The notes beneath the pieces are model-generated. The model was not told the origin of the DNA, made no database searches, and saw only the letters and a list, made by a program, of their open reading frames with translations. Shown here piece after piece: positions 28,937 to 46,337 of a stretch of 64,000 nucleotides of DNA. The position numbers and the translations under genes were made by a program. Positions within the stretch are counted from its first letter, which is position 1. Each line of letters opens with the position of its first letter. The stretch comes from Saccostrea cucullata (taxonomy: Eukaryota): the NCBI RefSeq assembly GCF_032062105.1, contig NW_026940997.1, positions 496,001 to 560,000 on the forward strand. Direction: 5' to 3'.

Positions 28937-31900
28937 ATGAGGGCCCGGGATTTTGCCCACTACAGCCTGAGGATTTTTTTCATCACCGTAGCCAACTTGT
29001 TTGGAATCCCTTCATATCTCACCTGGATTTTACTTCTCCAGCCCTTAAAGCATTATTACCCAGAGTTATTTTGGAAAATTGAATCTGTTTTATTCCAGGG
29101 ACTTTTAACTATAGTTACGACATGGCTGTACTCAGGGGGATATACAAGTAAGCAGCAATTATTACACAATCTGAAATGTATCCATTGTAAATAGATGTAC
29201 TTTTTAGTGTAAATATCAGAATACAAAGGATAGTGGTTAATGGCATATTCCATACTACCCTTTTATCTCATGCAGATACACTGCAGATAAACTCACCAGT
29301 GTCACAATGGTGCAGCTTTTTTCAGGACATTTGCTTTTAACTAGCCTCAGGGGACATGATTTGAACAAACTTAATAACACACATCTACATATGCTTTTAC
29401 ATTATGACTAATAATGACCATGGTGATCTTCACAATTAAAAAAAAAAGTCTCTGAGTCTTTATTGTACCCCTACCATATCCCAGACTATTGCAACCTCCC
29501 AATGCTCCCAAACCCCAGACTATTGTAGCCCTCCCAAACCTCAGACTATTGTAGCTCTCCCGAACCCCAGAGTAGAAGCTCTTCCAAACCCAAGACAAGA
29601 TTATTGTAGCTCTCTAAACCCCAACTATTGAAGCTCTCCCAAACCCAAGATTATTGTAGCTCTCCAAAACCCCAGATTATTGTAGCTCTCCCTAATTCCA
29701 GACTATTGTAGCTCTCCCATACCCTAGACTATTGTAGCTCTCCCATACCCTAGACTATTGTAGCTCTCCCTTACCCCAGACTATTATAGCCGTCCAGTAC
29801 CCCAAACTATTGTAGCCCTTCCATACCCTAAACTATTGTAGCTCTTCCATACCCCCAACTATTGTAGTCCTCCCATACCCCAGACTATTGTAGCTCTCCC
29901 ATACTCTAGACCATTGCAGCTCTCCCATACTGTAGAGTATTGTAGCTCTCCCATACTCTAGACCATTGTAGCCCTCCCATACGCTAGACTATTGTAGCTC
30001 TCCCATACTCTAGACTATTGTAGCTCTCCCATACCCTAGACTATTGTAGCTCTCCCATACTGTAGAGTATTGTAGTCCTCCCATACCCCAGACTATTGTA
30101 GCTCTCCCATACCCTAGACTATTGTAGCTCTCCCATACTCTAGACCATTGTAGCTCTCCCATACTGTAGAGTATTGTAGCTCTCCCATACTCTAGACCAT
30201 TGTAGCCCTCCCATACGCTAGACTATTGTAGCTCTCCCATACCCTAGACTATTGTAGCTCTCCCATACTCTAGACCATTGTAGCTCTCCCATACTGTAGA
30301 GTATTGTAGCTCTCCCATACTCTAGACCATTGTAGCTCTCCCATACTGTAGAGTATTGTAGCTCTCCCATACTCTAGACCATTGTAGCCCTCCCATACGC
30401 TAGACTATTGTAGCTCTCCCATACCCTAGACTATTTATAGCCCTCCCATACTCCCAAACTATTGTAGCCCTCCCATACTCTAGACTTTTGTAGCTCTCCC
30501 CATTGTCGGAAACCCACGGGTGATCTTGTCTATACTTATCACCCGTGGGCAAACTGGCTGAAATATCGCCTTAAAATATGCTAATTTGTTGTTCTTAGTC
30601 AACCAATCAGAAAGTTGGAACTCTTCAATTTTGAAAAATATGTTTATTACTTTGCTATTTATGGTAAATATTTTGAAGCTCGTTAAAACGTGCTAAGTTT
30701 GATTTAAAACAATGAAAGTCAATTCGTACAGGTCACTGACATTAATATCCCTCAGATATTACATAGGAGTACCTCTTTCTAACTGCAAAATGCACCGGTG
30801 ACTGGATTTATCAGCTGTGTTAACTACAGAATGAGTATTTCATGTTTTTGGCAATGCCGAACATGCATATGTAACGTGAACTGTGATTCGTTGTTTCGCA
30901 TCGCGACTCTGTGATGGGGGCAATCAAATGACCCATGCATATTTAATTACATACGATGATTTTTCGGCGAGTTTGCCCACGGGTGATAAGTAAAGACGAG
31001 ATCACCCGTGGGTTTCCGACGATGAGCTCTCCTGTACCCTAGACTATTTTAGCTCTCCCATACCCCAAACTATTGTAGCCCTCCCATATCCCAAACTATT
31101 GTAGCCCTCCAATACCCCAAACTATTGTAGCTCTCCCATACCTAGACTATTGTAGCCCTACCGTACCCCAAACTATTGTAGCTCTCCCATTCCCTAGACT
31201 ATTGTAGCTCTCCCATACCCTAGACTATTGTAGCCCTCCCATAGGGTAAAAAAACTTCCACCTTTCTGATCTGCTGTTTGCGTATTAGTTTTACTAATCA
31301 TGGGCCTATTGTTTGAATAAGGAATATTTCACAAGATTTTTTCCCATATATTCCCATGTGAAACTTTGATACCCCAAGGCTAGCTCCACCCTTTCTCCTG
31401 GGGGACTTCTTTTGAACAATCTAGAATATGCACTGTCGAAGAATGCTAGCAAAAAATATATAATATCACATGGTCCTGCTATACTTATGAAGATTTTTAA
31501 ACATTTTCATGTAGCACTGACATCTGCTACTGAGGCCCAATCCTACTGCCTGTGGCTATGTTATGAACAAGGGTACCACAAAACTGATCATTAAGCAGGA
31601 TCATGATTAAATCAAATCTGCAATAGCCAGAGATGTTTATGAATAATATCACTATAATCATCACATGGTCTTGCTGCAGTTGAACAGATTAGAAAGATTT
31701 TACAATGATTGCATATTATTTGTCCCATGCTTCTTGAAAATATTTTTCACAATGCATTACTTTGCTTTTTTATGCTCTGTAAACAAAGTTTCAGGGGTAT
31801 ATAGTTTTTGTCGCGTCCTTCCATCTGTCTAGCTGTCTCTCTGTCTGTCTGTCTGTCTAGCTGTTCGTCTGCAAAAACTTTAACTTTGCCCATAACTTTT

Positions 31901-34900
31901 GATTTAGTGGAGCTATGACTTTCATATTTCACCTGTATATTCCTTGTGACAAGACCTTTCTTTGGGTACCACCAAATTTGACCTTTCGACCTTGGAGTTT
32001 GACCCACTTTTACACAAAAATGCCAAACATTTACTTGGCCATAACTTTTGAACAGTAAGGACTAGTGCTTTCATACTTCACGGTCACCATACATATGTAA
32101 TTCTTGTGAAAAAAAACCTTTCATTGGATACCAAGAACTTTGACCCTTTGACCCTGACCTTAGAGTTTGATCTACGGTACTTTTAGAAAGCAAACCTTGA
32201 CCATAACTTTTAAAGGGTCAGGACTAATGTATTCATACTTTACATATTTATTCCTTGTGACAAGGCCATTCCTTGTGTACCACCAAATTTGACCCTTTGA
32301 CCTTGACGTTGGAGTTTGACTTACTTTTCAAAATTGATAACCTTGGCCATAACTTTTAAAGGATTAGGGCTAGGGCTTCCATACTTCACATATGTATTCT
32401 TTGTGGCAAGACCTTTCATTAGATTCCAGTAACCTTGACCTTTTGACCTTGACCTTGGAGATTTCTGTACTTATAAAAACTTTAACCTTGCCCATAACTT
32501 TTGAACTCTAAGGGCTAGTCCTCTTATACTTCACATATGTAATCCTTGTGAGAAGACCCTTCATTGAATACCAAGAACTTTGACCCTTTGACCTTGACGT
32601 TTGACATACTTAAAAAAACAAATCTTGATCATAACTTTTGAAGAAGGCAAGTGCTTTCACACTTTTCATATCTAAACCTTGTGACAAGACCTTTCATTTG
32701 ATGTCAAGAATTTTGACCCTTTGACCTTGACCTTGGAGTTAGACCTACTTTTAAAAATAGGTAACCTTGGCCATAACTTTTGAAGGGTTAGGGCTACGGC
32801 TTCCATACTTCACGTATGTATTCTTTGTGGCAAGACCTTTCATTGCATACCAATTACCTTGACCTTGGGGATTTCCATAGTTATGTCCATCCATCTGTCT
32901 GTCTAGCTGTCCGTCTGTCTGTGCAAAAGTGTCCGGTCCATATCTTTCTTACGGAGGAACATTAGAATCTACTATTCCACACAAATATTGCCCATGACCT
33001 AAGGGTGTGTCATGACCTTGACCCAAGGTCATTTGGGGAAGTTCAAGGTCACTGGAAGAAAAAATTCATAATTCGTGTCCGCTCCATACTTTCTTATGGA
33101 TAAACTTGGTAGGTTCTAATTTCACACAAAGATTGTACATGACCTAAGGGTGTGTCCTGACCTTGACCCAAGGTCATTTGGGGAAGTTCAAGGTCACTGG
33201 AAGAAAAATTTCATAAGTCGTGTCCGGGCCTTATCTTTCTTATGGATAAACTTGGTAGGTTCTAATTTCACACAAAGATTGCTCATAACCTAAGGGTGTG
33301 TCATGACCTTGACCAATGGTCCTTTGGGGAAGTTCAAAGTCACTGGAAGAAAAAATTCATAATTTGTGTCCGGTCCATATCTTTCTTATGGATAAACTTG
33401 GTAAGTTCTCATTTCACACAAAGATTCCTCCTGACCTAGGGATGTGTCATGACCTTGAGTCAAGGTCATTTGGGGAAGTTCAAGGTCACTGGAAGAAAAA
33501 ATTCATAATTCATGTCTGGTCCATATCTTTCTTATGGATAAACTTGGGAAGTTCTCATTTCACACAAAGATTGCTCATGACCTAAGGATGTGTCATGACC
33601 TTGGGTCAAGGTCATTTGGGGAAGTTCAAGGTCACTGGAAGAAAAATTTTATAATTTGTGTCCGGTCCATATCTTTCTTTATGGAAAAACTTGAATCTAC
33701 TACTCCACACAAACATTGCTTATGACCTGAGGTTGTATCATGATTTTGAACCAAGGTCATTTATGCAAGTTCAAGGTCACAGACAGAAAAAGTTCATCAT
33801 AATTTGTGTCTGGTCCGTATATTAAGTCTATTTTTTTTATTAGGCTGCGCCTTCGTTTCATTTAAGAAAAATATAATGAGCAATTACATTTGCACTAAAA
33901 ATATTTTAGCATTTCTCTCGTTCTTTTAGATCCATAAAATATTCACGATTTAGCACTTCTGAAAAACCCAGCAGGGGGTATTTTGTCCCGTTTGGACAGT
34001 TCTAGTTATCTCTTCTTTCAAGAAGCCCTGGACCTTTATTTGAACAAAGGGATATTCAGTGCCAGATTTGTCAGAAATTGGTCAAGTGGTTTTGGAAAAG
34101 ATTATAAAATTGAGAGAAAAAAAAATTATGACACCATCAAGGACAATTAAAAAAAAAACCAACAGACAAATTTTGTCCAGGAAAGCTCATGTGCAATATT
34201 ACTTAGAATAATTTTAACTGAACAATATATACAGTTTTGATCCTTTTTATTAACACAATATTTATTAGGTAAAGGGTGAATAACTTTTGTTTTTATCTCT
34301 CCCCCCCCCCAAAATATACCAAGTGCCTTATTGTTAGATACCCTTGTATATTTTTTATTTTATTTTCATATACTTTCTAAGTATTCTTAAATTGAGTTTC
34401 GATCTTTGTAGTAATGGAGTCTGGAGACAGTTTGGAGGGGATCATGAATGATGAAGCAGTGGTTCTAGTAAATCATCAATCCACATCAGACGTTCCCATT
34501 GTCATGTCAGCTCTTCATAACAAAGCTCAGGTGGTCGGGAAGGTCATGTGGGTCATGGACGACATCTTCAAGTACACAAACTTTGGGTGGATTTCTTATT
34601 TCCATGGAGATTTTTTCATTCTTCAGGTAAAATGATGCTTGAAATAAGTTAAAATTTATTGAGAGTTTTTTTAAAGTGTTTATTTTAAATTGCTTGGAGA
34701 CAAAGTATTATGTTGTGTTTTTTCTTAGGGAAAAGAAGCAAGAACAGATTCTTTAGAGAAGTTACAAAAACACATAAATGAAATATATAAAACAACATTC
34801 AAAAATTGGATCATCCTGTTCCCAGAGGGAGGGTTCCTTCGAAAACGTAGATTTCGCAGTCAAGAGTAAGTGTACTGGTATATTTTACATAATAAATATT

Positions 34901-36374: not shown

Positions 36375-38935
36375 TATTTAGATTAAGGTTTGTGGTCCCC
36401 CGTTTGCTCAATTTAATTTTTTGCTTTCATAAATAATTTTCCAAAAGAAATTTATAATTAAAAATGCACACAATTTAGGCATACTTTGTGGGGGCAAAAT
36501 ATAACTGATTTAGAAATGGCCTTAAACTTAATATTATAGAGGTCTCAGGAGTTATATTCATTTATCCCAGTCTTGATTATCGCTGATAAACCTTAATCTT
36601 AAGACAATGTTAACATTTTACATTACATGCATATGCATTTATAAATCTCCTTAATCTAAGAACCTTGTGATTTGAGATCATACATGTATTTTCTTCTTCA
36701 GGCATATCAACATGCACAAGTATGGATAATTTTAAGATAAAAGACTTTAAAATTATTTTATTACAAATGTTATCTGGGTTATGTCAGTAACATTGGTATA
36801 AAAAAAATTACATTGTATACCTGAGGAACAAAATTTAAATATGAAACTTTGATTTTGGCGGAAACTATGTAGTCATTTTTAGGAAGTTCATAAAGATACT
36901 TCCTATGTACATACTAATTAAGTACCAGTAACCAGAACAAAGTATAATGCATGTATTCAGGGGTCAGCTGTGCATTGTGTGTTCATTAATGAAGCTTCTG
37001 CCAATATTTTCCTTCTTTTGAGGTTGTTTGGTTGACAACTACAAATTGTACATGTACTAGTAAATTTCAGAAATTAGGTAACTAACTTATTTATAGAATG
37101 TTGCAAAGATCATTTTTGTAGTTGTAAATGTACTAAGTTCACGCTTTGTCTTGCCAGCCCGAGTGTTGGATTTCCAGTTTTTTTTTTGGTAATGATAAAT
37201 GCATTATGCTGGAGATATAATCTAGATCAAGTTGTATGTTTTTTAAGTCTTTCAGCAATAACATTCATGTTTGATTACTTGATTTTATGTTTTCTACAAT
37301 AATTTTTCTAAGCTGCCACCCATTTGAAATCTGTGTATATATATACATGTACCAGCACTAGATCTTGACATTCCTGATATCTTAAATACCTCAATATATT
37401 ATCAACTTGATATATTTTAGAAAAAAAAATTTAAACCATGAAAACATGGAAATCTTAGAGTAACTATCATACTGTAACTTTCAAGACTCCGACTGTTTCA
37501 AGTACTTATGATATATCACAAAATGAAGATTCTGGTATGCCAACATTTTCTTTGGATACACCATATAAGCAGAATTTTTAGCGTGGATTTAATTTTGGCA
37601 TTATTAGCAAGGGTGTTTAGAATTGAATATTGCTAATAAATAATTGCATTTTATTTATAAAAGTTTCATTAGTGAGCATTTTTAAAATCGCTAAAATTAC
37701 ATCTCACTAAAAATAACTTTAATAAATTTTCAGGACAATTGCTAAATTTGTGTCTTGCTAACATTTCAACTTCTATGTTAATAGGATATATGTGTGCTAA
37801 AAGTATACATTAAGTACCAGCTTTGGTTTTGATTGTCTGTAAACTAGCTTTTTTCTGATTTAAAGTGTATGATTTATATACTAATATAGTTTGGTATACT
37901 AGCTGGTATTGATATCATCTTTTTGAAATTAAAATGAGTTGAATTTTAAGAAATTTGATACATGTATACCATACTGATTTTTAAGCATTAATTTATACAT
38001 GTATTCCAATTATTAAAAAAATAATGTTTATTTATTGAAGTCTCATTTTATTTTTAAGTTAAACCCATAGTTTTGTTCTCTTTACTATATTCCCCCTTTC
38101 CATTTGGCATACAAAAGTAGGTCACTTGAGACTACTTTTACTTTGCAATTTTACAGCTGAGAACCTTAACAAAACTCAGACTATAAACTGAGAACAGACT
38201 TATGGAATGATATGAACTTAGTAAAACCTTAAGTCTTTATATAATAAATACAGTGGATTTTAAATGAATATTTTTATTTTCATTCTAAATTTCACAATTA
38301 ACGAGAGGTTCAGCAAACGAACGTGTACATGTAAAAGGGAATCCCCCTCCTGAATTCTGTCTATTATGTCATCAGTTCTGTTAGTGACAAATTTCTACAT
38401 GTATTCACTTACATGTAGAATGCCGAGTACGTTAGTCCACACATGTAGCTTATATTTCTTTTTTAGAAATATTTTTTTAAAACCTGTAGCTTTTATGCAA
38501 ATTCTAATACATAGAACTAAACAACTAGAATTGAAAAATATGATTTTATAGAGTACATGTATTAAATACTCAACCTCTAGATTTTCAAAACAGGCTTTGA
38601 AGGGCTAAACTTATAAGAACTCTATTCAATTCTATCCTGATAAATATATGCAAATATTTATTTAACATGGCGATATACATATTAAATTTATTCTGTTTTG
38701 TAACTTTTTGTCATTGTAAGCACTTTTGCATTTAAAACACTTACAAGTACACATACAGGATATACTTTGCTAAACAAGAGAAATCATTTTCTATTAGTTG
38801 TATGTGGGGATTATTTTATACGCGTAAGCATATTGAAGGGTAGTTGTTTGGTCATAGTATATAAGAAGTTGGTCAGGCGTAAAGTGGTCATCGACGAGCA
38901 ATAATCAACCAGATTTCGAACACGCTTTACCTGTT

Positions 38936-39772
38936 ATGAATGAGTCAAATTCTAGTCACGAGGAGCGGGTTTTACATGCTGCGCCCCAAATTGGCCAAAG
39001 TGGACGACCTGGCTTGACACAAAATTCGCAAGACGAATTCACTAGTGAAGATGCACTGGATATTTTTACAGACAAATTAGAAAGGGCGCTTAGACGGCAA
39101 AAGCAAGAAATCGTCAGTGAGTTGAGTTTAGCCCAGAGGTCAACAGAAAAAAAGGTACCTGATTTTAGATATCAAGGCAATAAAATTCAGTTTGAATTCA
39201 ATGCAGAAAGAGAAACTGACATTAGAAAAGTATTAAACCTGTTGGAAAATAACAGAATAGAAGCGGCTAAAGAAATTTTGAATTCTACCATAACACATTT
39301 GAATAAAAGAAATAAAGTTGTTCGCATAGCGGATAAATATGGTTGGGATGTTGTACATGAGTATGAAGATGATCCTATTACTGACGACGCTGACGATGCT
39401 ACTAAGCTTCGACAAGCTATTTTCAGAGCAAAGAAAAGAAGCAACAACAAGAAGCCTTATGACAGAACAACACGTGCTTATCCTGGACAGGAAGTGCAGT
39501 CATTTCCGGGACAGTTTTTTCGTTCATATGGGCAGGATTCTGGACAGGGTTTCCCCAGAACAGAGTACGGAAGACAATCGTTCTATCAGCCCTTCACATA
39601 TCCTCAACAAGGGTACAGAAAGGCAACTTCAACTGTCACAAGTAACAACGGAGCAGCAGCCAGCAACATCTGTTTCTACTGTAACAAATTTGGACACTGG
39701 GCCAACAAATGTCCAGAGAGAGGAAGTGGAACTTCCACTACAACCGCAACAACAACAACAGCCAGCAAATAA
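38936..39772 (+). CDS. Gag-like ORF1 of the YR retrotransposon
   Basis: FRYQGNKIQFEFN..RNKVVRIADKYGWDVVHEY core and CCHC knuckle CFYCNKFGHWANKC. Overlaps pol in another frame. Confidence 0.88.
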   Translation: MNESNSSHEERVLHAAPQIGQSGRPGLTQNSQDEFTSEDALDIFTDKLERALRRQKQEIVSELSLAQRSTEKKVPDFRYQGNKIQFEFNAERETDIRKVLNLLENNRIEAAKEILNSTITHLNKRNKVVRIADKYGWDVVHEYEDDPITDDADDATKLRQAIFRAKKRSNNKKPYDRTTRAYPGQEVQSFPGQFFRSYGQDSGQGFPRTEYGRQSFYQPFTYPQQGYRKATSTVTSNNGAAASNICFYCNKFGHWANKCPERGSGTSTTTATTTTASK

Positions 39773-41178
39773 TGACTTGGTGAGCACTTGTTCTTTGAAT
39801 GACAATGTATGTGAATTTGAAAATTTTAGTTCAAATAGTGTTAAAGGCAATTTAAAGAAACACGCAAAATTTTGGAAATATCATATAGGTGCCTCAGATT
39901 TTATTTTAAATGTCATAGAATATGGTTATTTTATTCCATTTTTAATGTTGCCTCCAACAGCATGTCTCACTAATAACAAATCTGCATTACAGCATGGACA
40001 ATTTGTTGACTGTGCTATTAATGAGCTCTTAGTTTCAGGAATAGTAGAGGAACAGATGACTCAACCTTATGTGGTAAACCCTTTATCTGTGTCGGTTAAT
40101 TCTGCTGGAAAATGTAGATTGATATTAGACCTCAGGCATGTTAATCAATTTATTGAAAAGAAAAAATTTAAAATCGAAGGTGTTGCTAATGCATTACAAT
40201 TGGTGGTAAAAAATGGATTTATGTACAAATTTGATTTAAAGTCAGGGTACCACCATGTAGAAATACATGATTCGCATCAAAAATATCTTGGTTTCACATG
40301 GAAATTTGGAGATAAAAAGAGGTATTTCATTTTTAAATGTTTACCTTTTGGTTTGTCGAGTGCCCCGTATTTATTTACAAAGTTACTTAGACCTTTAGTG
40401 AAATTCTGGAGAAACAAAGGTTTTAATTCAATCGTTTATCTAGATGATGGATGGGGTATTGCTGATGATTATCATACTTGTGCAAAAATTTCTTGTGAAG
40501 TTAAAAAAGATTTAATTGATGCAGGTTTTGTTATCAATGAAGAAAAGAGTGAGTTTCAACCCAAACAAGTCATTAAGTGGTTAGGATTTTTATGGGATAC
40601 TAAATTGGGAACTCTATCAGTACCTGATGATAAACTTTTGAAATTTCAGAATGATATTGAGTTCATTATCAAAAACAAAAGTAATGTTACAGCTAGACAG
40701 TTGGCTAAAATTACAGGGAAAATCATTTCATTTTCTTTTAGCCTTGGTAACATATGTAACATCATGTCTAGATATTTACATATAGCCATTGCAGAATGTG
40801 TCTCATGGGATCAAACAATATTATTTAATGATAACATCGATCATGAAATTAACTTTTGGTTACAAAATTGTAGATCTTTAGCCAGAGTGTGTTATTTTGA
40901 AAGTGACAAACGTCCAGAGCAGATTTTATATACAGATGCTAGTGGTATTGCAGGAGCTGGTTATTCTGTTAAGACAAATAATTCGTTGGTTCATTATATG
41001 TGGACACCTGAACAGAAGTGTCAAAGTTCCACATGGAGAGAACTTAAAGCAGTACAAATTACTGTAGAGAGTCTCAAAGAAATGTTAAGCGATAGGGTAG
41101 TTAAGCTGTACACTGATAATCAAAATGTAGTCAAGATCGTTGACAAGGGCAGTATGAATCAAGAATTGCAAAGTTTAT

Positions 41179-42000
41179 TGTGATAAATGTGAAATGTTAA
41201 TTGCGTTGTCATGTTTACAATGTGCGATATTTCTTGTCTCATACTTTGTTGTGACATGTCGAGGAAATTCGAACTGGTATTGATGCATGATTACTGTATA
41301 AATGCATATTATATTTATTAATTTCGATGTTAATCATATTCATTTTTACATACTTAATTACCTCTATTCATATGATTACGTCTATTATTGTGGAAAACTA
41401 CAACTTGTATCCAAAACTGTGAAGAAAGATGTTTTGACTTTACCGGGAAATCACATGTTTTCATACTGCAATCCCGATCCCGATCGAACATGATTTGTAT
41501 AAAGAATTTCGTATTTATTCTGTACTTTGACTCGAGTACTGTTTTCTTGTAGTAATATTATGTAATTAAAATAAATATTATCATATTTTTATTACCGTTT
41601 TAATGATACAAGTTGTGTATTGTAAATATGTAGATATTGCTATGACCTAGTTACCTAGATACGTTTGTATAACATACGGGTTCTTGTGCTATATAGAGGT
41701 ACGGCAGCCGTTAAGGGTGACTATCTATTATTGTTGAAAGGTATTTTTTATTAGTTTTTAAGTACTTAAATGATATTGTAATATTATAGAAAGGATTTTT
41801 AACGAATGTTATAGTGAATAGGGATTTGTATTACATTGTTCAATATTTTTTAAAGGAAAATATCTAAATTTAAACCTGAAAATATTATATTTCATATTTT
41901 ATGTTCTAAATAAATAGTTCATATTAATTGATATAATATTTGTGTCTTTTCTAACGTTTTTGAATTTAAATACACATAACAAATTCAGCAAACGCAATAA
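41179..42000. mobile_element. 822-bp AT-rich insertion, solo-LTR-like, in the RNase H region of pol
   Basis: 4-bp TSD TTAT (41175-41178/42001-42004). Starts TGTGAT, with TATA-like (~41690) and AATAAA (~41908) motifs. The 3' end is not a canonical CA, so the class is uncertain. Confidence 0.65.
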
Positions 42001-42406
42001 TTATCAATATCTATTTATTCTATTTGTTTGCAGAATAAAATTAAGTTAGAGACTGAATGGATTCCAAGATCTGAGAATGAAATTGCAGATGCGTACAGTA
42101 AGATTTTTGATTTTGTTGATTGGTCAGTGGGTGATCACATTTTCCAGTTTTTAAGTAAAAAATGGGGGCCATTTGATTATGATTTATTTGCAGACTGTAA
42201 AAATAAGAAAGTAGAAAAATTTTATTCCAGATTTTGGAATCATGGAACATCAGGTGTAGATGCTTTTGGGTTTGATTGGTCTATAGGTAATAATTGGATA
42301 GTACCTCCTGTTAATCTAATTATAAAAGTGATTAAACATTTGATTTTGTGCAAAGCAAGAGGTACTCTTATTGTTCCTAAATGGCAGTCTGCACCTTTTT
42401 GGCCTT

Positions 42407-43527
42407 GGATAGAATGCACTTTACAGGTACGGCCGCCATTTTGATTCTAGATCCGCGCGTGAGAGTGCGCGGCGTAAAAACTTAGCAACGTATCAACTAT
42501 GATGGGCGACGCCATTTTGTTGTGTAAGAAACTCTCGAAGCGAGAAAAAAAGATATCTAAATGGGTTTTCGCTTTTTTAAGCGGGGGTGTGGGGGCGGCA
42601 GCCCCCAATACGTAAAAATAAATAAAACAAACTTACCTTAGTCGTTAGATAAATCTGCGTTAAGACTCGGGGCCACACCTACGTGTCACTATACATGTAG
42701 AACCATTGTGTCTTTTTTTTGATGAGTTGTAAATACGTTTTTATGGGTGATGAAGGAGATAAACGTCAATTTTAAATTATAGCTACTATCCTAGTGCATT
42801 CTTGTTTTAGTAGAGATTTCCTATATAACTGCATTCCATGTGGTCTCAATGATTGTAAAGTATCCAGTGTTAAATAGATAAATTTTAGTTCGTAAATCCA
42901 GGATTTACTGCAGCTCTGTTTCCAGAAATCTAAGATGTGACTCTTACGTTTCATTTTTCTTATACTGCCGATTGCTGTTTCTCGAAACAAGACCGTCCTC
43001 ACTGCATGTTTACAAGTTTTGCCCCTCCACTTATTCAACATTTCCATAAACTAAGGATCACATTTATCGCTAAAATTTCCAAAAATTCTAGTATGTTGCA
43101 GTCAGTCAATTAAAAATATCCATTCATAGAAAACACAACACAAATCATCTTAAATAAGGTGCATGATGAATCACTGTTTACAATCAAATAGAGTGGAAGT
43201 CAAACTTTCTATTTCACGTCACCTACCCTGACCAATCACAGCACTGAAATAAGTCACGTGCTTAACAACGTCACGACTTTGGAATGTGGCCGACAAAATG
43301 AAAGCCAAAGGTTTGTTTTGAAAGTGCTTTTAGTTTTAATTAATAACTTCGTTAATTAAACGAAGTTTATTAACATGAAAAATGACGAGGAATTCAAAAA
43401 ATAGGTTATTTTTGCATTTTATTGCCTTTTTAGCGAAATCGTCACGCTGACGCGTGACTCTCTTATAGAGAAGGAACACGTGCTATTTCCATGTTATTTG
43501 GACGTACCGGTAAAGTGCAGTTGTCCC
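42407..43527. mobile_element. Non-autonomous DNA transposon, GG...CC termini, 8-bp TSD
   Basis: TIRs ggatagaatgcactttacaggtacggcc / ggacgtaccggtaaagtgcagttgtccc. TSD TTGGCCTT (42399-42406/43528-43535). Confidence 0.85.
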
Positions 43528-43755
43528 TTGGCCTTTATTAGTTAAGCCGTTTTCTGGAAATTTTCAAAATTTTGTTAAAGAATGGCTTGAATATCACAAG
43601 CCTCGAAACTTTTTCAGGAAAGGATCTCATGCAGAAAGTGTGTTTGCTGAACCACAGTTTCAGAGTAATGTTATTGTGCTTTACATAGACTGTTCTGATT
43701 GTTGAATTTTGTGTTTATGCTATGTTATAACAGACAATGATCATGAATTTATGTT

Positions 43756-43900
43756 AGCCTTTATGAGGCTTTTGTAAAGCCCGGATGGGGCAATTGTGAT
43801 GAAGCCCGGATGGGGCAATTGTGATGAAGCCCGGATGGGGCAATAGTGATGAAGCCCGGATGGGGCAATTGTGATGAAGCCTTGATGGGGCAATTATGAA
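43756..43900 (+). repeat. 25-bp tandem hairpin array between pol and YR
   Basis: aagcccggatggggcaattgtgatg, about 5 copies, plus an upstream variant agcctttatgaggct. Confidence 0.9.
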
Positions 43901-44142
43901 TATAAAATTTATGTTGCATATAATTGTTAATTATTATGAATTATGAAGCATTATGAATAAGATTACAGATGTACTTATTAAATTTGATCAAGAAAGGGCT
44001 GAAATGTTGATCAAGAGACATAAATGTATATATATTTAATATGAAGTAATTTTTTTTTTAATTTCAGCTCACATGTAGTTTCTCGACTTGGAAAGAAATT
44101 AAAAAGATTCAAGATCCTAGACTCAAGGACACGGTACTCAAA

Positions 44143-45084
44143 ATGAATGATATAGTAATGCACAGTAAAAGTGATAACACGTATAAAAAATACAGAAGCT
44201 ATTTTCTACAGTTTAAGTCTTGGTGCACAAAATTTAAATTTCTTGCATTACCTGCTACACCATCTTCTGTTGCAGTTTATTTGTCTTATCTTATACAAAA
44301 GCAGTCTTCAGTTGCAGTCATTAATGCGGCATATTATAGTATTCAATGGGCACATCATATTAATCTTTGTAATAATCCATGTGCAGACAATCTTGTAAAT
44401 TTGATTTTAGAAGGAGGGAAGAGATTGTTATCGAAACCTGTAGTTAAGAAGAAACCTATTACACCTGAGATTTTAGATAAAATAATGGATAAATTTCCAC
44501 AGGTAGAAAATTTATATCATTCGAGATTGGTATGTATGTTGTTATTAGGTTATGCAGGTTTCTTAAGATATGATGAACTTGTGCATATTCGAATGTGTGA
44601 CATTAAGTTTCATGAATCAGGTTCACATGTTGAAATTAGAGTTGAAAAAAGCAAAACGGATATTTTCAGGCAAGGTAATATTGTTGTTATAGCGAAAACA
44701 GGTAATAAACTTTGTCCTGTTTCTTATCTTGAAAAATACATATCATTAGCTGGTCTTGCTTTTCAGTCTAATGATTTTATTTTTAGAGCAGTTACATTTT
44801 TCAAAAAGGACAATGTTTATAAGTTATGTAAATCAAATAAACCTTTGACTTATACTAGAGCTAGAGAGCTTCTTCTGGATGCTCTTAAAAGTGTGTGTGT
44901 AGATTTTAAAGATTATGGTTTACATAGTTTGAGAAGTGGTGGAGCAACTGCAGCAGCTAATAACAATATTCCAGATAGACTTTTTAAAGCTCATGGCAGA
45001 TGGCGTTCGGAGAATGCTAAAGATGGTTACATTTCAGATAGTTTAAATAACAAACTCGTGGTTACTTTGAATCTTGGATTATGA
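44143..45084 (+). CDS. Tyrosine recombinase of the retrotransposon (frame open upstream to an acceptor at 44067)
   Basis: Catalytic set intact: FLRYDE, KSKTD, HSLRSGGAT, HGRWRSE..DGY. Confidence 0.93.
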   Translation: MNDIVMHSKSDNTYKKYRSYFLQFKSWCTKFKFLALPATPSSVAVYLSYLIQKQSSVAVINAAYYSIQWAHHINLCNNPCADNLVNLILEGGKRLLSKPVVKKKPITPEILDKIMDKFPQVENLYHSRLVCMLLLGYAGFLRYDELVHIRMCDIKFHESGSHVEIRVEKSKTDIFRQGNIVVIAKTGNKLCPVSYLEKYISLAGLAFQSNDFIFRAVTFFKKDNVYKLCKSNKPLTYTRARELLLDALKSVCVDFKDYGLHSLRSGGATAAANNNIPDRLFKAHGRWRSENAKDGYISDSLNNKLVVTLNLGL

Positions 45085-46337
45085 ATTCTTTAATTTCTTT
45101 TGTAGGTTAATGATATACCCAACCTTTGTGTTCGAACTGGTTGATAGGCGCTCAACATACTACATCTGTGTTCTGTTAATTATTTTCTAAGTACTTAGAA
45201 TAGAAATATTTTATGTTCGGATGAGTGAAACGAAGGAGAACATAAATCATTTTCTATTAGTTGTATGTGGGGATTATTTTATACGCGTAAGCATATTGAA
45301 GGGTAGTTGTTTGGTCATAGTATATAAGAAGTTGGTCAGGCGTAAAGTGGTCATCGACGAGCAATAATCAACCAGATTTCGAACACGCTTTTTTTGAATT
45401 ACTTAGATATATATATATTGTATAATTAAGACATGTTTCATTGTATTTTGCAGATAGATTGTATTTGGAATTTTGGTAATATTCTTGGGGTCATCATCCA
45501 GGGCATCGCTACTTAAAGTCGCGTGTTTATTGTACATATATATGTGAATAAACTGGTTGATAGGCGCTCAACATACTACATCTGTGTTCTGTTAATTATT
45601 TTCTAAGTACTTAGAATAGAAATATTTTATGTTCGGATGAGTGAAACGAAGGAGAACATAAGTACTGTAAACATGTACAAGTAATTCTGACTTGTAGTTT
45701 ACATGTACAAGTGAGCTTGCTAAACTTCTCTAATGTGTAATAAAGTCCCAAAAAATTATAGATTTATAAGGGTGACTGCAGAAAGGTAGAATTTTGAACA
45801 ACATAAAAAGTTTACATTTCGAAACATTTTAGAAATCTTGCAATTTGCATCAAGTCTAGTTTATAAAAGCATTGTGTTAAATCTGGCTTCTAACATTTCT
45901 TCCATTACTTAAGAAGATATGGTAAATACACATGTACAGGAATGGTAAAGTCTTCTAAGATAACTCATTTTCTTCTCACCACTTCAATTTTAACAAACGC
46001 AAGTCATCATTATCATATGGAGCTCCAGCCAAAGTAGAAATAAATATGCATCAAAAAGTTTAAATTCAGTGTATTTCTTTTTCAAAGTATAAAATTTAAA
46101 ATCTATTGAACCAAATAAAAGATAAAATAAAGTTAAGTCTTCTTCTACAAGTAAATTTAAAATATACTGGTAATTCATCTTAAAGTTCATATATGTAAAA
46201 TTAAATTTGGAAAATCAATTTGCGTGGCAAATCTTACAATCATTTTAAAGGTTATGTTTTTTAGAGTGTATTCATATCATTTGTCTCTAGCACTACTGTC
46301 TTTCCATGTGTATAGTTACAACAGTCAATAACAGTTT

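Follow-up and report, generated by a model that had tools for sequence, protein, structure and literature searches.

Repeated stem-loops between pol and YR in PAT-like retrotransposons: a hairpin array in Saccostrea cucullata and its counterparts in relatives

Retrotransposons of the Pat1-like echinoderm form were reported from a mollusc, a cnidarian and a sea urchin. They possess a gag with a zinc knuckle, reverse transcriptase and RNase H (RT/RH), a methyltransferase (MT), a tyrosine recombinase (YR) encoded on the same strand and split direct repeats in the order A1...B1 A2 B2, with the internal pair located after YR (PMC4157794). Neither a hairpin array in the spacer between pol and YR nor a spliced YR is described in the intron and repeat passages of that paper or in the passages on hairpins, splicing and introns of further papers on YR elements (PMC3266345, PMC9210276, PMC6681497, PMC7192593); Repbase notes or reviews may mention internal repeats or splicing. 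Retroviral psi packaging signals contain hairpins with short stems and G/U loops at several sites (GGAG/GGUG in HIV-1, UCUG in MoMuLV, SL-C in RSV), they are located near the 5' end within an intron, so that spliced RNA is devoid of them, and the corresponding Gag carries a CCHC knuckle (PMC7599994). Signals or factors that act for intron-retaining retroelement RNA and are located 3' of pol are the HIV-1 RRE with Rev, the MPMV CTE and the Cer1 CERV (PMC10309623).

Here, we analyzed a stretch of 64,000 nt of Saccostrea cucullata DNA (64 kb; the window, to which all positions refer), which contains a retrotransposon with an array of six hairpins in its pol-YR spacer. The element is of a known kind, and it carries a cis-signal that was not found described in the cited passages of the YR-element literature. 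The array resembles psi in its short stems, its G/U loops, its several sites and the presence of a CCHC knuckle in Gag, and would resemble it in its intronic position if the introns described below are right. In contrast to psi, it is located after pol and consists of simple repeats of one loop, a dimerisation loop was not seen in it, and binding by Gag is proposed by analogy only. With the export signals it shares the position 3' of pol on intron-retaining RNA, while no Rev-like ORF was identified in the window element. RRE and CTE are large single folds and not arrays of 10-15 nt hairpins, and the RRE is present on singly spliced HIV RNA, as the array is on the inferred pol mRNA. The PAT elements TOC1 and kangaroo carry internal tandem repeats with units of 76-89 nt in non-coding parts, for which we know of no claim on loops or covariation.

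The retrotransposon has split direct repeats and is a PAT-like YR element of the DIRS order, which agrees with the PAT/DIRS type named in the first-pass annotation; Pfam domains RVT_1, RNase H, Dam and Phage_integrase are all present. Its left end is the 153-nt repeat A1 (38776-38928), which is 99% identical to A2 (45239-45391), and its right end is repeat B2 (45551-45661), which is 100% identical to the 111-nt repeat B1 (45135-45245). All features are encoded on the plus strand, apart from two insertions to which no strand is assigned. The gag ORF starts at the first in-frame ATG (38936-39772, within the ORF 38858-39772) and encodes a single CCHC zinc knuckle near the C-terminus (zf-CCHC, E 1.3e-4). 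The pol frame (39330-41183) overlaps gag by 150 codons and continues with RT and RNase H (RVT_1, E 3.8e-18) until it is broken by insertion 1 (about 826 nt, 41175-42000). The insertion is bridged by a joint 41174 to 42001 in contigs of the runs X1 and X9; it is missing from other copies, and RT and MT are contiguous in relatives. The Dam-like MT is split into an N-terminal part with the motif NWIVPPV (42001-42398; Dam, E 3e-7) and the C-terminal end of MT and pol (43528-43705, stop TGA at 43703-43705), which matches the relatives L007, L035, L059 and L070. Between them lies insertion 2 (about 1129 nt, 42399-43527), bridged by a joint 42398 to 43528 in X1; it has terminal inverted repeats of about 25 nt, and eight letters are shared at the joint, corresponding to an 8-nt target duplication. 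Both are abundant host insertions, and both break pol. The non-coding pol-YR spacer (43706-44067) ends in a polypyrimidine tract with AG, the likely 3' splice site of the YR exon (44045-44067, by sequence and joint), and is followed by the intact frame of the YR exon (44068-45084; Phage_integrase, E 1.6e-7). This frame has no conserved start codon and begins directly past the T-run and the AG at 44067; the named best homologues of YR are bivalve proteins with 45-55% identity, and a search of viral contigs for YR relatives found none.

The zinc knuckle in Gag, the same-strand YR and the internal repeats after YR are features of the Pat1-like echinoderm form. The locus differs from that form in that A2 and B2 are 159 nt apart (45392-45550) and in that this copy is broken by two insertions. 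An assignment to Ngaro was rejected, as Ngaro is defined by the lack of an MT domain and a Dam domain is present here; a DIRS1-like assignment, which needs inverted terminal repeats with an ICR, was rejected as the termini are direct repeats. One X1 contig joins the end of A straight to the start of B (38928 to 45135). The end of repeat B at the B1/A2 junction (45218-45245) contains a short self-complementary TTCG...CGAA without an Rfam match.

The spacer harbors six short GC hairpins with loops ending in AUG, as the first-pass annotation had reported, and the AT-rich surroundings it described correspond to 33% GC in the spacer. Pattern matching located GCCT-TTATG-AGGC (hairpin 1) at 43757-43769, four copies of GCCC-GGATG-GGGC starting at 43779, 43804, 43829 and 43854, and GCCT-TGATG-GGGC at 43879-43891, all on the plus strand. 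The pattern GCCYNNATGRGGC has six matches in the 64 kb, all on the plus strand in 43757-43891, compared to 0.01 expected from shuffles, and a count of six was reached in 0 of 100 shuffles of the window. The six motifs are the window's only NNATG pentaloop hairpins with three to four G-C among the first four stem pairs. Five of them are part of a 25-nt tandem repeat of 4.9 copies (43777-43899, plus strand; four GCCC-GGAUG-GGGC and one GCCU-UGAUG-GGGC) with 94% matches between copies and near-identical linkers, so that the six copies amount to three distinct hairpins only. Hairpin 1, which can be extended to AGCCU-UUAUG-AGGCU (43756-43770, plus strand, -5.8 kcal/mol), lies outside this repeat, 22 nt upstream of its hairpins and with a different linker. 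The four identical copies arose by recent tandem amplification of a single 25-nt unit, and the window alone therefore shows little covariation: pairing of its own six copies is 15/15 in every permutation, which makes the test uninformative here. The compensatory stem change proposed earlier does keep pairing, but the variation across the six copies is limited to one position, the loop-closing pair (C-G, U-G, U-A).

Folded singly, the six hairpins have predicted energies of -4.9 to -8.2 kcal/mol, with -8.2 kcal/mol for each GCCC-GGAUG-GGGC copy, and none of 200 shuffles folds as well as the array region (z -4.2). Its minimum-energy fold is one long irregular hairpin with arms of different repeats paired, and not a row of six hairpins; in this context hairpin 1 has a predicted local stem probability of 0.6-1.0, and the other hairpins reach 0.1-0.6. 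The spacer is furthermore ATG-rich (24 ATG vs 4 CAT in 365 nt) and contains the 300 nt with the densest ATGs of the 64 kb. Across 38500-46000, no Rfam covariance model (hammerhead, k-turn, SECIS and others) matched at an E value of 5 or below. A degenerate hammerhead or a C/D k-turn (GUGAUGA in the linker) was rejected, the core letters being absent by eye and Rfam giving no match. With regard to a G-quadruplex, the spacer has six G-runs, those of the array are about 21 nt apart, and at least four GGG runs are found in just 12 of 45 relatives.

Contigs and reads of four (X1, X9, X10, X24) of 24 listed runs were aligned to 38700-45230 at 80% likeness, and copies of the window's own family were seen only through contigs of these runs. 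Among these close relatives the copy number varies, stems are kept in X9 and X10, and AUG is not invariant. In X9, which carries another organism label, a back-joint implies an extra copy with the loop UAAUG and one U-G pair; in an X10 contig the first hairpin has the loop AAAUU, the UGAUG hairpin comes directly next and the four-copy block is missing.

One X1 contig also reveals two GT..AG joints that likely correspond to introns on the plus strand. Likely intron 1 (39155-39329, 175 nt; joint 39154 to 39330) has both ends at codon boundaries, and its removal would shift the gag frame into the pol frame. Likely intron 2 (39780-44067, 4288 nt here; joint 39779 to 44068) has the donor TTG|GTGAGC and, after the T-run, the acceptor AATTTCAG|CTC, both in phase 0; its removal would take out pol, MT, the spacer and the hairpin array and join a pol-frame exon in frame to YR. 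The sides of the joints, 28 nt for intron 1 and 30 nt for intron 2, are shorter than the 31 letters of the tool's bridging rule, and X1 is only presumed to be RNA. Both joints have an equal depth of 14.2 and their sides match the ends of a 509-nt contig, so that they are read as one molecule. Among the raw RNA reads of X24, 92 of which aligned to the element, no joint was seen. The Mytilus YR protein P0018 has a weakly similar extension at its N-terminus (E 1e-4). The array is thus likely located inside a GT-AG intron that is removed to make the YR mRNA, which supports what the first-pass annotation had proposed. If the introns are right, unspliced RNA and the inferred pol mRNA would carry it, whereas YR mRNA would not; the further claim that it marks the full-length genomic RNA alone does not hold, as the inferred pol mRNA retains it too.

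The two introns imply that Gag, Gag-Pol and Gag-(pol-frame exon)-YR would be made from one transcript, and pol would be reached through the 175-nt intron rather than by frameshift. In relatives, conservation of intron 1 is not evident, and the match in phase between donor and YR acceptor is mixed. The array is skipped by one of several deletion-type joints, 42281 to 44921 (X1, depth 39); this joint and three others that likewise lack GT-AG ends (39487/42075, 41061/42198, 41141/42148) may mark internally deleted copies. A clade with ACUG loops contains an AT-rich stretch between gag and pol (L016:1039-1514, L029:1-490, L059:1251-1741), with a donor-like site directly past the gag stop in L016 and L059 and acceptor-like sites before pol; this suggests one donor with two alternative acceptors.

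Distant relatives were collected by YR alignment. Of the 385 metagenome stretches that were confirmed the best 80 were used, together with 9 of the 27 candidates from genome contigs. Loci without MT were dropped; 71 spacers including the window had MT and YR and group into 46 families at 80% YR DNA identity, 45 without the window. Nine of the loci (L081-L089) are GTDB contigs labelled bacteria or archaea that encode an animal-type retrotransposon YR, probably due to host contamination of bins. The window's exact motif and its NNAUG loop class were found in 0 of 89 related loci, so that NNAUG was rejected as a clade-wide loop; together with the AAAUU loop in the closer relative this contradicts the earlier view of an AUG-ending loop as a conserved feature. 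Searching with a 19-letter pattern produced 19 isolated matches, none of which formed an array or had a gag, RT, MT or YR match in its vicinity, and these were taken as chance.

Nevertheless, a search for the 6-mer repeated most often in each spacer, made without regard to structure, landed on hairpins in many of them. The tetraloop ACUG was obtained in eight families by this search, and other repeated loops are CAG (L004, L033, L036), GAGU (L018, L025), UGGAG (L083), GUGGG (L087) and more. At least three hairpins with the same loop are present in 11/45 spacers of related families compared to 0.26 in shuffles (maximum 2), 0/42 pol, 1/45 YR and 0/32 downstream segments, with 0.43 for segments drawn at random from the window; at least two are present in 25/45 spacers vs 4.1 in shuffles. 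The best cluster of at least three in the whole locus falls into the spacer in 12 of 15 cases, the window included, with spacers making up mostly 2-26% of the loci. The distance between pol stop and first hairpin ranges from 11 to 205 nt across the 16 arrays in which it was measured. The stem type of the window, GCC-N3-7-GGC, reaches 2.7/kb in spacers, four times the density of 0.66 found elsewhere in the loci, and 0.13 in the remaining sequence of the window. Arrays are not ubiquitous: 20/45 families score below two same-loop hairpins under the strict rule, and a well-supported clade of seven (100/100) has short spacers of 33-186 nt without arrays, the pol end of its member L027 being mis-called owing to an early stop. 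In L034, L052 and L056 of this clade, the 3/3 with a readable junction, gag and pol share one open frame; their spacers are 33-36 nt long, without a hairpin array. A transfer of the arrays to the gag-pol junction in this clade was rejected, as the repeats of L052 and L050 lie in frame within coding sequence and no repeats are present in L034 and L056.

Among all 256 tetraloops ACUG ranks first (29/56 in 10 families, corrected p 4e-27 with occurrences treated as independent) and AAUG second (12/94, corrected p 6e-3). Under a looser rule, ACUG is closed by at least three pairs at 31/56 spacer sites, vs 72/853 in the rest of the loci and 2/73 antisense. The claim of selection rests mainly on a set of 27 CACTGG copies from eight families that was picked by core and loop alone; the covariation over all families (186/204) is partly circular, as its cores were picked on hairpins. 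In the CACTGG set 70/81 outer cells are paired, compared to 57.4 +/- 3.1 when the 3' arms are permuted within an element, and 0 of 5000 permutations reached 70. Stem changes are two-sided in 15, one-sided in 5 and broken in 11 cases, and all four Watson-Crick types are present at stem position 2. Over all 30 CACTGG sites (11 families), 81% pair in register vs 32-49% with slid partners. Host satellites run through the same pipeline gave 131 paired vs 131.1 permuted, without excess. Tandem arrays of 26-nt and 146-nt units at 29505-33797 of the window served as negative controls. Dinucleotide shuffles do not preserve repeats, and the claim is carried by the permutation, slide and regional controls. 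The flanks of the CACTGG copies are near-random (9-55% identity), and the fixed loop, the floating stem sequence and these flanks show that the copies are not tandem duplicates. The ACUG-loop families are spread over four separate clades of a YR tree which contains no named reference elements and leaves the row of the window unresolved. Non-canonical pairs on the sense strand (11 G-U vs 1 A-C, p 0.067 after composition) are weak evidence for the strand. The spacer stem-loops thus constitute a selected single-stranded stem-loop signal at a fixed place in the relatives, while for the window's own family the evidence is thin. Hence the hairpin arrays and the covariation beyond tandem duplication, whose absence from relatives would have refuted the first-pass annotation, are present in their spacers, and the selected structure assumed in the first-pass annotation in place of a neutral minisatellite is upheld by covariation and position there, but not by the four copies here, which are a recent tandem repeat.

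What reads the array can be proposed by analogy. We tentatively favor, at a little short of an even chance, that it acts as a multivalent binding tag through which the Gag zinc knuckle selects intron-retaining RNA for packaging. The array would be the form that the window's family has of a stem-loop signal repeated in the pol-YR spacer of many PAT-like elements; the knuckle would bind the hairpin loops on RNA retaining the likely YR intron, so that packaging and copying would be confined to this intron-containing RNA and would not include the spliced YR mRNA. Since both terminal repeats would still be present on the spliced YR mRNA, an intronic tag would stop the formation of pol-less copies. 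We infer that it is the sense-strand RNA which is recognised, with Gag as reader and packaging as outcome. Retroviral knuckles bind G residues exposed in the tetraloops GGAG and GGUG or in UCUG, whereas isolated hairpins are not bound by MoMuLV NC (passages on these loops in PMC7599994); the spacer hairpin loops contain G/U. The lineage-specific loops suit a co-evolving element protein as reader. As the array is also part of the inferred pol mRNA it cannot single out the genome alone, array-less families and the seven-member clade mean that the tag is not universal, and predicted pairing between repeats competes with the local loops. A possible but rather doubtful extension is a lineage-coded barcode, in which the loops (ACUG, CAG, GAGU, UGGAG, NNAUG and others) would each be read by the Gag knuckle of their own family, selecting the genome for packaging and balancing unspliced, pol and spliced YR RNAs.

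As the main rival, selected hairpins could instead control splicing, export or stability of the intron-retaining RNA through a host or element protein, by holding back the YR 3' splice site or by licensing export or stability of the gag/pol mRNA as RRE and CTE do, and this we hold to be somewhat unlikely. The position fits, as the YR acceptor follows the array at 177-311 nt and the pol stop precedes it by about 50 nt, with 11-205 nt between pol stop and first hairpin in the 16 measured arrays; the array would be in unspliced and singly spliced but not in fully spliced RNA; retroelements need export of intron-containing RNA, by an RNA structure in MPMV and by Rev in HIV (export passages of PMC10309623); and the single gag-pol frame in 3/3 members of the array-less clade is another expression scheme. 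However, the loops vary by lineage, which better fits a co-evolving element protein even though ACUG recurs, the distance of the arrays to the acceptor ranges from about 38 to 386 nt, and acceptor-like ends before YR are also found in the array-less clade. It is unlikely that the window locus is just a neutral 25-nt minisatellite with a short inverted repeat and that only the hairpins of relatives, if any, are functional. Its period of 25 with 94% matches and near-identical linkers, the differing arrays of close relatives (the extra UAAUG copy in X9, no four-copy block in X10), the 0/89 loci with the exact motif and a minimum-energy fold other than six hairpins are what such a repeat would give; yet hairpin 1 keeps its stem outside the repeat, the X9 and X10 variants still pair, the GCC/GGC stem and position match relatives (2.7/kb vs 0.66), and covariation and positional conservation are found across relatives.

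Hairpins of single-stranded DNA, either antisense cDNA or plus-strand DNA, read by YR or another element protein are quite improbable. DIRS-1 does make a single-stranded, almost complete antisense cDNA (according to the cDNA passages of PMC7192593). Watson-Crick stems are possible on either strand, with -1.5 to -3.7 kcal/mol predicted for the minus strand, but the G-T pairs of the sense strand (11 vs 1 A-C, p 0.067) would be mismatches on the minus strand. Furthermore, recombination in the DIRS/PAT model is expected at the termini and not in the middle of the element, which counts against such a DNA signal. A role of the loops as substrates or docking sites of the Dam-like MT domain, which ends directly upstream, is very improbable: MT adjoins the spacer, most loops contain A and the function of the element MT is not established (MT passages of PMC7192593), but its motif is V/A/C-P-P vs the conserved catalytic triplet N-P-P (in the motif passage of the preprint 10.64898/2026.05.21.726589), array-less relatives carry the same motif, and A is absent from some loops. 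We give equally little credit to the AUG-rich spacer as a translational trap that keeps ribosomes on unspliced RNA off YR. Of its 24 ATG (vs 4 CAT) 16 are left without the four-copy block, and the 25-nt period spreads ATGs over all frames; relatives, however, average 22 ATG per kb vs 66 in the window spacer, and covarying stems with non-AUG loops would be left unexplained.

Even for DIRS-1 no primer is known (priming passages of PMC7192593). A short modular covarying motif with fixed loop and place across many families provides a direct experimental handle on how DIRS-order elements choose the RNA for reverse transcription and express YR. The two-intron scheme, if right, would account for the lack of a conserved start codon in the YR frame, and with the loops read as a barcode, if true, a signal for packaging or RNA sorting would be known in the DIRS order for the first time.
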